IMG/VR virus record: IMGVR_UViG_2718217860_000001
Length of the DNA: 49,063 nt
From: a virus
Lineage: Duplodnaviria > Heunggongvirae > Uroviricota > Caudoviricetes
Reading direction: 5' to 3' (one strand)
The position numbers and the translations under genes were made by a program. Of the stretch, positions 18,005 to 18,705 are shown piece by piece; position 1 is the first letter of the stretch; each line of letters begins with the position of its first letter. Under the pieces are notes generated by a model. It saw nothing but the letters and a program-made list of their open reading frames with translations. It ran no database searches and was not told the origin of the DNA.

Positions 18005-18028
18005 ACCCGCCGCTGAGCGGGTTTTTTT
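18005..18028 (+). terminator. rho-independent terminator (tR'-like)
   Basis: Stem acccgc/gcgggt with 6-nt loop followed by T7 run. Confidence 0.6.
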
Positions 18029-18177
18029 GTGCCTGATGTCTCATGAAACTATGAAATGGATTGGTGAGTTAAACATTTTTTCTTATTATCTTTTAGATTT
18101 TGGAGAGATGGTTAACGTCTGTATTCCAGAAACTCGATGGTTATTTAATAAATTAGTTTCAATGATGCTTCTAGGTT

Positions 18178-18603
18178 ATGACTGTAATGAAAAAGGTATT
18201 AATAGCAGCGATAGGTTTTTGTTTAGTTGGTTGTGCAGGTATGAAATTACCTGAGTATTCGCAAGTTAAAGCAAGTCCGTATTATACAGATTGCCGTGCG
18301 TTTGCCATGGATGTTTATAAAAATGATGGATACAGCAAAATTGCGAAAACTACTATCCTTAGCATGGATGATGTGAAAGCTAGATATATTGTGACAGGGT
18401 GTGTAGTTGCTATGGGGAAAAACACTGTAGAGGAAATCAAAGCTGATCTCTCTGCTAAAGGGAGTTCTTTTGGGCTTATCAGTGGAGCTTGTTCTAGTGC
18501 GGCATGTCGGGTTGATGTAGAGCAGCAAATGAACGCTTATGTACTTGGTAGTTATTATGCTGCAAATAAAAAATTCCCGGATAAAATGAAAGCAGAGTTT
18601 TAA
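18178..18603 (+). CDS. lipoprotein moron (signal peptide plus lipobox LVGC)
   Basis: N-terminus MKKVLIAAIGFCLVGCAG; AT-rich segment bounded by two near-identical terminators. Confidence 0.7.
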   Translation: MTVMKKVLIAAIGFCLVGCAGMKLPEYSQVKASPYYTDCRAFAMDVYKNDGYSKIAKTTILSMDDVKARYIVTGCVVAMGKNTVEEIKADLSAKGSSFGLISGACSSAACRVDVEQQMNAYVLGSYYAANKKFPDKMKAEF

Positions 18604-18681
18604 GCAAACCTTGTTTTCGATTATATGTCGAAGATAAATGTTAGTAACGGCATAATAAGTAAATATATAGCTGTGATAGCA

Positions 18682-18705
18682 ACCCGCCACTGAGCGGGTT
18701 TTTTG
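18682..18705 (+). terminator. rho-independent terminator, near-duplicate of 18005..18028
   Basis: acccgcCActgagcgggtttttt versus acccgcCGctgagcgggttttttt. Confidence 0.6.

Follow-up and report, generated by a model that had tools for sequence, protein, structure and literature searches.

Late control region and the terminator-flanked cassette

The window analyzed here is a 49,063-nt stretch of a tailed-phage genome (Caudoviricetes; IMG/VR record IMGVR_UViG_2718217860_000001), and its late control region carries a gene for a 141-aa lipoprotein that is bracketed by two near-identical intrinsic terminators (Table 1). We refer to positions 18029-18704, which hold this gene and the second terminator, as the cassette. 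A repeat finder returned one direct repeat of 24 nt, AACCCGCC(G/A)CTGAGCGGGTTTTTT, at 18004-18027 and 18681-18704, whose copies match at 23 of 24 positions and start 677 nt apart. Only these two copies occur in the window at up to three mismatches (none expected from 100 shuffles). Both hairpins have a 5-bp stem of G+C pairs (CCCGC/GCGGG) and a 6-nt loop, followed by seven T in copy 1 and six in copy 2, and in 41-nt contexts they fold at -13.9 and -12.0 kcal/mol, respectively. The fold of copy 1 has a z score of -3.1, and an upstream A-run lengthens its stem. Because a consensus terminator scan lists copy 2 and misses copy 1, the call of copy 1 rests on its fold and on the repeat. With terminator 2 the cassette ends and the downstream module begins. 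Existing records already annotate both terminators in phage Ayreon and the single one in SfV.

Upstream of the cassette lies a late control region that closely resembles that of phage lambda. The Q protein matches PDB entries 7UBM/4MO1, 'Antitermination protein Q' (phmmer, E 3e-37), which we take to be phage lambda Q, and by sequence it belongs to the Q-lambda family. The late promoter pR' is composed of a -35 hexamer TTGCAT (17929-17934), a 17-nt spacer, a -10 hexamer TAAGAT (17952-17957) and an AACGAT element (17964-17969), from which we infer a +1 at about 17964. AACGAT is the pause-inducing element of lambda pR'. When the two late regions are aligned, TTGACT-17 nt-TAAATT-TGA-CTCAACGATGGG in lambda stands against TTGCAT-17 nt-TAAGAT-TTT-CTCAACGATGGG in the window; the hexamer spacing is the same, and the 12 nt that cover the lambda start and AACGAT are identical. 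The pR' stretch is nearly invariant in a four-phage alignment (window, Ayreon, SfV and vB_EcoM-720R4, hereafter 720R4), and terminator 1 lies 40 nt downstream of the pause region; the lambda terminator was located near positions 965-990 of the lambda late-region record (L135). Homology and position identify copy 1 as the tR' of the phage late promoter, and the region as a lambda-type late control module in which a Q-lambda protein, a pR' with its pause element and a close intrinsic terminator are all recognizable. In lysogens, pR' is constitutively active and is terminated at tR' (PMC7547250).

Base composition sets the cassette apart from its surroundings. Guanine-plus-cytosine (GC) content is 0.359 in 18029-18680, below the 0.496 of the window and the 0.47-0.48 of the flanking Q and methylase genes, and the cassette is compositionally foreign. 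Non-coding stretches of 280 nt and ~200 nt separate the 141-aa open reading frame (ORF) from the Q gene and from the 75-aa ORF, respectively. An earlier note on this DNA had described a low-GC lipoprotein insert, bracketed by a near-identical terminator pair, downstream of the late promoter and between the Q region and the lysis genes. Its low GC and its terminator pair are borne out, and the terminator coordinates given there (18005-18028 and 18682-18705) are correct within one base. The placement downstream of the late promoter now rests on homology rather than on position alone, because pR' aligns with that of lambda, and a Q-lambda family gene precedes it. The insert, of the moron type, follows Q, pR' and tR' and occupies the leading position in the late operon; the lysis genes do not adjoin it, as the 75-aa ORF and a methyltransferase gene intervene.

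Table 1. Positions of the cassette, its control elements and neighboring genes in the window.
Feature	Position	Strand	Evidence and remarks
DUF968/HNH gene	16136-17131	+	Context
Antiterminator Q gene	17145-17897	+	250 aa from ATG at 17145; Pfam PF03589, E 7e-54
Late promoter pR'	17929-17975	+	Alignment to lambda pR'
Terminator 1 (tR' by homology)	18001-18028	+	A-run 18001-18005, hairpin 18006-18021, T-run 18022-18028; fold, repeat
Promoter-like site	18061-18089	+	TTGGTG-17-TATTAT, 8/12 consensus matches
Lipoprotein gene, 141 aa	18178-18603	+	Lipobox, dN/dS; alternative start 18187 (MKK)
3'-UTR hairpin	18611-18637	+	Within a 66-nt segment that the Salmonella cassette lacks
Terminator 2	18681-18704	+	Hairpin 18683-18698, T-run 18699-18704; repeat, consensus scan, fold
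75-aa ORF	18803-19030	+	phrog_331; weak winged-helix signals; first gene of the downstream module, outside the cassette
N6/N4 DNA methyltransferase gene	19181-20233	+	PF01555, E 2e-42; PADLOC MTase_II
Lysis cassette	20238-21477	+	P21-type holin gene at 20238, PF04971, E 4e-35
Endolysin-position ORF, 165 aa	20516-21013	+	ORF list; role from position and related-phage annotation
Rz-position ORF	20998-21477	+	ORF list; role from position and related-phage annotation
Rz1-like lipoprotein ORF, embedded in the Rz-position ORF	21230-21436	+	Role from position and related-phage annotation

The lipoprotein and its family

The 141-aa ORF is a real gene under strong purifying selection, because the ratio of non-synonymous to synonymous substitution rates (dN/dS) against five homologs is 0.08-0.22 where it can be computed, and because the lipobox and four cysteines are invariant. 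Non-synonymous divergence from these homologs is 0.07-0.29, and synonymous sites are at or near saturation. The N-terminus, MTVMKKVLIAAIGFCLVGC, contains the lipobox LVGC, with Cys19 encoded at 18232-18234 and alanine at the +2 position. Residues 1-18 (MTVMKKVLIAAIGFCLVG, directly before C19) form a signal peptide with a basic n-region and a hydrophobic core ahead of the lipobox. The sequence fits the G+LPPv2 pattern; under a stricter PROSITE-like lipobox pattern the window protein fails, having a cysteine at -4, and the other five homologs fit. Gly-Cys is invariant in eight family members, followed always by alanine or serine, and C39, C75, C105 and C110 are likewise invariant, as are motifs such as VYKNDGYSK. 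The earlier note had named the lack of a functional lipobox as a refutation of its proposal; the lipobox is kept in all homologs. By sequence criteria the product is a bacterial lipoprotein, for which alanine or serine at +2 predicts outer-membrane sorting via the Lol pathway, and the invariant cysteines fit a disulfide-bonded periplasmic domain.

Given the eight-member alignment, AlphaFold2 models five helices and a short hairpin with a mean predicted local distance difference test score (pLDDT) of 79 and a predicted template modeling score (pTM) of 0.75. The protein matches PHROG phrog_4748, annotated 'unknown function', as are all its PHROG matches. A Pfam scan returned no family at E <=1, and NCBIfam returned a single chance-level row (E 0.12; 12.6 bits against a 137-bit cutoff). 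No model of the PADLOC defense library matches the protein, a PDB sequence search gave no credible match, and Foldseek found no match at E <=0.001 in PDB and BFVD, where only generic helical-bundle resemblances appeared. The Pfam and PHROG results likewise give no sign of membership in the lambda Bor family, whose genes lie downstream of Rz, and the present gene lies upstream of the lysis genes. Neither sequence nor fold similarity was detected to the characterized exclusion lipoproteins Cor, Llp and Ltp. A literature search found no study of this lipoprotein gene, and terminators are not discussed in a paper on lambdoid mosaicism.

The family is small, with nine clusters at 90% identity among 5.8 billion proteins and eight representatives among 1.84 billion. 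Neither a profile search of the 1.84 billion representatives nor another round started from the most divergent member (P0015) brought in further sequences, and the contexts of that member and of a weak Pseudomonas phage match offered no functional clue. All members but the two most distant come from Enterobacteriaceae. The family occurs only in temperate-phage settings, which are of three kinds. The first lies between Q and the lysis genes in lambdoid prophages of E. coli and Salmonella, and the second is the early region of Rac-like prophages, beside a vapBC pair. The third comprises Klebsiella phages of 84-120 kb and a 111-kb Buttiauxella plasmid, which encode their own replication genes and are probably phage-plasmids. 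A second lipoprotein gene (99 aa, lipobox LSGC) follows 10 nt downstream in a Klebsiella phage (L006 6446-6745) and in the Buttiauxella plasmid (L014 3431-3730), which suggests a two-lipoprotein operon in this setting.

Presence and absence among relatives

Positions 17000-19200 were used as a megablast query against 50,697 phage records. The whole region is matched at 98% identity in mEp460, in Ayreon and in all 15 records of Stx2c-converting phages, and the match is split in SfV and 720R4. A four-way alignment shows that in SfV and 720R4 the pR' leader runs into a single terminator and then into a 65-75-aa ORF and the methylase gene. Exactly the 677-bp unit is missing, and the indel has the same length as the repeat spacing. 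The cassette occurs at 97.7-99.8% identity, always in the chromosome, in 215 (~4%) of 5426 complete E. coli genomes, whereas 1492 contain one or both flanks. Behind the pR' leader, sampled IMG/VR contigs have the empty junction of the 720R4 type in 16 cases, that of the SfV type in 3 and the cassette in 9. Wherever the flanks of the cassette are intact (14/14 copies), one terminator lies 174 nt before the start codon and another 77 nt after the stop codon, the latter distance being found in all 16 copies inspected. The comparison with insert-free relatives that the earlier note had proposed therefore gives one terminator and the absence of exactly one unit, and the contrary case it had named, the gene with one terminator only, did not turn up among the intact copies.

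Morons, as defined by Juhala and Hendrix and summarized in PMC3594210, have four defining features, and three of them are found here: additional DNA separating genes that adjoin each other in relatives (677 bp relative to SfV and 720R4), a different base composition (GC 0.359 versus 0.496) and an own terminator, recognized at the sequence level (18681-18704). The fourth, an own promoter, is represented by a promoter-like site only. This site is also present in Ayreon and has a positional counterpart, TTGGTA-18-TATCAT, in a Salmonella cassette; the hexamer positions are kept although the E. coli and Salmonella cassettes are only ~65-70% identical there. Many deposited genomes already contain the cassette without comment; the concept is a textbook one, and the cargo is new and uncharacterized.

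The Salmonella prophage just mentioned carries a homolog with 76% protein identity behind a Q gene of a different family (DUF1133/PF06530). The terminator upstream of this homolog, AAGCCCGCCACTGAGCGGGTTTTTTT, hardly differs from that of the window, and the DNA from there to the start codon can be aligned with the window. Its 3' terminator occupies the homologous place, only 10 nt past the stop codon, and has a different loop, CCCGCATTGCGCGGG; a GTAYCYGAAAC-like sequence follows each of the two. Because this cassette has both terminators, the ancestral cassette must already have been flanked on both sides. A C-terminal methyltransferase remnant lies between the Salmonella cassette and the holin genes (L004 6540-6812), and since this remnant is kept, the cassette-methylase neighborhood appears to predate the split of these E. 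coli and Salmonella modules.

The position behind tR' is also used by toxin genes. In Stx2c phage LC727877.1 (L013 2070-5909), the order is Q, terminator 1, lipoprotein gene, terminator 2, 75-aa ORF, methylase gene, stx2cA, stx2cB, a nanS-like gene and holin gene. Phage Lys8385Vzw combines the same Q/pR' module with stx1AB, which follow a terminator with a variant loop. The slot is thus the classical cargo site of Stx (Shiga toxin) and other lambdoid phages, given that stx2c and stx1AB occupy it. Two terminators, not one, separate pR' from the toxin genes in the Stx2c phage examined.

The terminator as a recombination joint

Sequence similarity among related genomes begins or ends at the terminators. 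A dozen genomes in the phage search match the Q module only to 18026-18031, and others (a cdtI phage and mEp460_4F5) match only from 18681; E. coli genomes fall into the same two classes, left-module-only (overall ending at about 18033) and right-module-only. In the O111:H8 strain 99.1145, a tRNA module directly follows terminator 2 in place of the 75-aa ORF. In strain N62, the same terminator connects the 75-aa ORF module to a WYL-domain gene and a short Q unlike that of the window, and in strain 23CRST030 the left side is replaced by an IS21 element. These junctions identify the terminator as a mosaic recombination joint for upstream (Q/pR') and downstream (75-aa ORF plus methylase, tRNA, stx) modules.

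The hairpin is not peculiar to this locus. The exact 22-mer CCCGCC(A/G)CTGAGCGGGTTTTTT, which in the window spans 18006-18027 and 18683-18704, was found at at least 124 sites, forming at least 37 groups without similarity in either 200-nt flank (IMG/VR loci L015-L134), on contigs of 41-65% GC; the chance expectation is far below 1. It is therefore a very common phage terminator, recurring either through convergence or as a horizontally spreading terminator unit, and its presence in so many unrelated contexts means that identity alone is weak evidence for duplication in situ. Of the proposal in the earlier note that the insert was acquired by recombination at a duplicated terminator, the role of the terminator as joint holds; the word 'duplicated' goes further than these unrelated contexts allow. 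After the T-run, the 22-mer sites show weak extra conservation of the form (A/G)T(T/G)nCC(T/C)G.

The empty sites differ from one another in the 15 nt after the T-run, the flanks being elsewhere ~2% different. SfV has TGTGCCTTGATGTTGG there, resembling the TGTGCCTGATGT that follows copy 1 in the window, and then the downstream module; 720R4 has GTACCTGTAAACTTGG, the sequence that follows copy 2. In a simple reading, an SfV-like site would be the unoccupied state, and the cassette would have entered it ~12 nt behind tR', bringing along a terminator of its own and a short tail. Sites of the 720R4 type could have arisen by a crossover between the terminator copies or by gain of a downstream module that already began with this terminator, as in N62. 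All versions of these events involve recombination at the terminator.

Two further observations concern the terminators themselves. At 17992-18005, just upstream of terminator 1, the window has GGTAAATGTCAAAAA where Ayreon, SfV, 720R4 and other relatives have GATAAGATTTAAGAA; this dense patch of substitutions adjoins the joint, and the resulting A-run gives a 10-pair stem and a seemingly bidirectional hairpin. Rfam returned only sub-threshold attenuator-like and small RNA matches on the terminators, including Trp_leader, which we treat as chance or as terminator resemblance; the hairpin is similar to the trp attenuator hairpin.

Other features of the window

The 75-aa ORF is also present in the empty-site phages SfV and 720R4. 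It was considered as a homolog of lambda orf-64, and no homology was found. Two ORFs that overlap the cassette were set aside. One (17979-18254, +, 91 aa, phrog_37626) overlaps terminator 1, extends into the 5' end of the lipoprotein gene and is probably not a gene, because stops break all three frames in the homologous Salmonella stretch; a shorter ORF overlapping it is annotated in Ayreon. The other, antisense (18247-18690), is ruled out because purifying selection acts on the + frame. The site closest to the promoter consensus in this region (ATGGCA-16-TATAAT, 10/12) also lies antisense within the lipoprotein gene, at 18281-18308 (-), and is typical for AT-rich acquired DNA. The 3' untranslated region (UTR) of the lipoprotein gene, taken with the terminator (18604-18704), folds at -30.6 kcal/mol (z -3.55), and the segment that holds its hairpin could give rise to a 3'-UTR-derived small RNA or be a mere remnant.

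sRNA-17 is reported to be an ArcA-regulated small RNA of an mEp460-like prophage of E. coli K1 (PMC7719688). It was considered as a link to the cassette and rejected, as the reverse primer and the Northern probe for the RNA of strain RS218 are unmatched in the window. The forward primer, from its 5' end, has a one-mismatch match at 9484-9515 (+), far from the cassette, which would make this a partial or 'degenerate' copy only. The right end of the window holds the transfer-messenger RNA gene ssrA (48662-49024, -). Toward the left end (5471-6637, -, and 1501-5186, -) lie a phage integrase, an insertion sequence (IS; DDE transposase), an AbiEii-type AAA ATPase and a D12 adenine methylase. The prophage appears to adjoin ssrA, with a small defense- or IS-rich island on the integrase side.

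Proposed mechanism and alternatives

We consider it reasonably probable that positions 18029-18704 are a moron in which a lipoprotein gene stands between a sigma-70 promoter-like site and an intrinsic terminator, and that this moron, placed directly behind tR', is reassorted by recombination at terminators. In a lysogen, pR' transcripts would stop at terminator 1, and the putative weak promoter of the cassette would support low-level constitutive expression of the lipoprotein. Terminator 2 would block cassette transcripts before the methylase gene and, 1.5 kb farther on, the holin gene and lysis cassette; it would be needed because a promoter-bearing insert ahead of the lysis genes is tolerable only with a terminator. 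Since the cassette stands at the head of the late operon behind tR', it would be under Q control as well, and after induction Q-modified RNA polymerase would pass both terminators and make the lipoprotein the first, and probably an abundant, late product. The protein would be exported, lipidated on Cys19 and sorted by Lol to the outer membrane, where the mature part would fold in the periplasm as a disulfide-stabilized helical bundle. The cassette would be gained, lost and re-assorted through recombination in the short terminator sequence shared between modules.

Several points weigh against this reading. The promoter-like site has just 8/12 matches and is missed by a stricter scan, and such matches are common in AT-rich DNA like that of the cassette. 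The lipoprotein has no functional homology in Pfam, NCBIfam, PADLOC, PHROGs or the fold searches, and the cassette, unlike cor, travels with the Q/late module and is not tied to a module for tail or receptor-binding proteins. Insertion and deletion would look the same at an empty site of the 720R4 type, and the near-identity of the terminators may owe nothing to duplication, with the hairpin in at least 37 unrelated contexts. This last point leads to a serious alternative, to which we give substantial weight without preferring it: copy 2 would be the terminator of the cassette itself, or of the downstream module, and would resemble copy 1 because the two are of a common hairpin type, alike through shared ancestry or convergent selection. 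The wide distribution of the exact 22-mer speaks for it, as does the fact that identity between the window copies ends at the ends of the 24-mer (junction comparison). Since the Salmonella cassette has a 3' terminator of its own, with another loop at the homologous position, copy 2 may have arrived with the cassette or by later exchange, and the downstream module carries this terminator even in phages from which both the cassette and this Q are absent. The copies are, however, far more alike in E. coli than in Salmonella, which points to homogenization or to a crossover within the terminator, and the indel unit is exactly the repeat spacing. This origin of copy 2 would in any case be compatible with recombination at the terminator and would alter only where copy 2 came from.

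As to function, we propose, tentatively and by analogy with T5 Llp and phi80 Cor, a role at the envelope in which the lipoprotein masks a receptor or blocks DNA entry, providing superinfection exclusion in the lysogen and protecting progeny from debris at lysis. The proposal is made because the protein is a predicted outer-membrane lipoprotein restricted to phages, mobile between unrelated temperate phages and placed for expression in both states. If the cassette has no promoter of its own, the gene would simply be the first Q-dependent late gene, active in lytic growth only, and terminator 2 a non-insulating passenger. Q-modified polymerase must indeed transcribe a gene that directly follows pR'-tR', the promoter-like site is weak, the gene shares a late transcript with stx2c in the Stx2c phage, and the holin genes of the Salmonella prophage follow it at a short distance; possible roles would then be receptor masking on debris to spare progeny, or modulation of lysis or of the envelope at burst. 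We nevertheless regard lytic-only expression as unlikely. The promoter-like hexamers keep their positions between diverged cassettes, homologs lie outside late operons (the Rac-like early region beside vapBC, and Klebsiella phages beside replication genes), and a 3' terminator kept in every intact copy is hard to explain without a transcript to stop. A host-fitness factor of lysogenic conversion, acting for example in envelope stress, serum or bile resistance or colonization in the manner of lambda Bor and Lom, seems to us a poor prospect: the protein resembles neither Bor nor any known virulence or fitness family, and its family is tiny and found in phage settings only. Such a factor would nonetheless suit the moron architecture, which is typical of conversion genes (PMC3594210), the lack of linkage to a tail or receptor module, and the occurrence of the gene in prophages of both pathogenic and commensal E. 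coli, including all the Stx2c phage records.

The broadest reading, that the 22-nt hairpin is a portable terminator 'linker' and general crossover point for cargo shuffling, and that the 141-aa protein founds a new family of envelope lipoproteins with an unseen activity, is speculative and in our judgment improbable. The activity might be a block of the receptor or of DNA entry, or control over lysis or toxin release. If this reading were true, the protein, whose gene is the first late gene of the Stx2c phage examined and is present in all 15 such records, could affect superinfection, lysis or Stx2c release in E. coli O157. Should it turn out to prevent the entry of phages or to influence lysis, the few known phage exclusion lipoproteins would gain another family. 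The locus offers a clean example of lambdoid cargo exchange, in which one terminator would serve as late-promoter stop, insulator of the insert and homology patch for module exchange; the architecture is textbook, and the evidence for the terminator as joint is unusually clean. The cargo is a strongly conserved, uncharacterized lipoprotein found in ~4% of complete E. coli genomes and in every Stx2c-converting phage record in the collection.

Comparison with known systems

The late control region is closest to that of phage lambda and to the region that produces the short RNA StxS. It shares with them a Q-lambda homolog, equal promoter spacing, identity over 12 nt of the initial transcript and a terminator just downstream. 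The predicted leader RNA from pR' to hairpin 1 would be ~60-65 nt long and should correspond to lambda 6S RNA and the precursor of StxS; the lambda 6S leader is 194 nt. The window further differs from lambda in a 40-aa insertion in Q and in a second terminator copy 677 nt farther downstream.

As an insert, the cassette resembles the lambdoid morons of HK97 and HK022 and the lambda genes bor and lom, being placed between genes adjacent in relatives, foreign in composition, equipped with a 3' terminator and a 5' promoter-like site, and coding for a predicted envelope product. It differs from them in heading the late operon behind tR', in having a 3' terminator that nearly copies tR', and in a product unrelated to Bor or Lom. 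With the stx and tRNA genes between pR'-tR' and S in Stx phages it shares the slot, and in the Stx2c phage examined it precedes stx2c in the same late transcript; in contrast to these genes, its cargo is a lipoprotein rather than a toxin, and the same hairpin bounds it on both sides.

T5 Llp, the Cor proteins of phi80, N15 and HK022, and TP-J34 Ltp are likewise small phage-encoded lipoproteins, and a site at the envelope would suit a block of receptor or DNA entry. Ltp of Streptococcus phage TP-J34 is, like the window protein, ~140 aa long and helical. No similarity of sequence or fold between the window protein and these proteins was detected, and cor adjoins the tail genes, whereas the present gene moves together with the late-control module.

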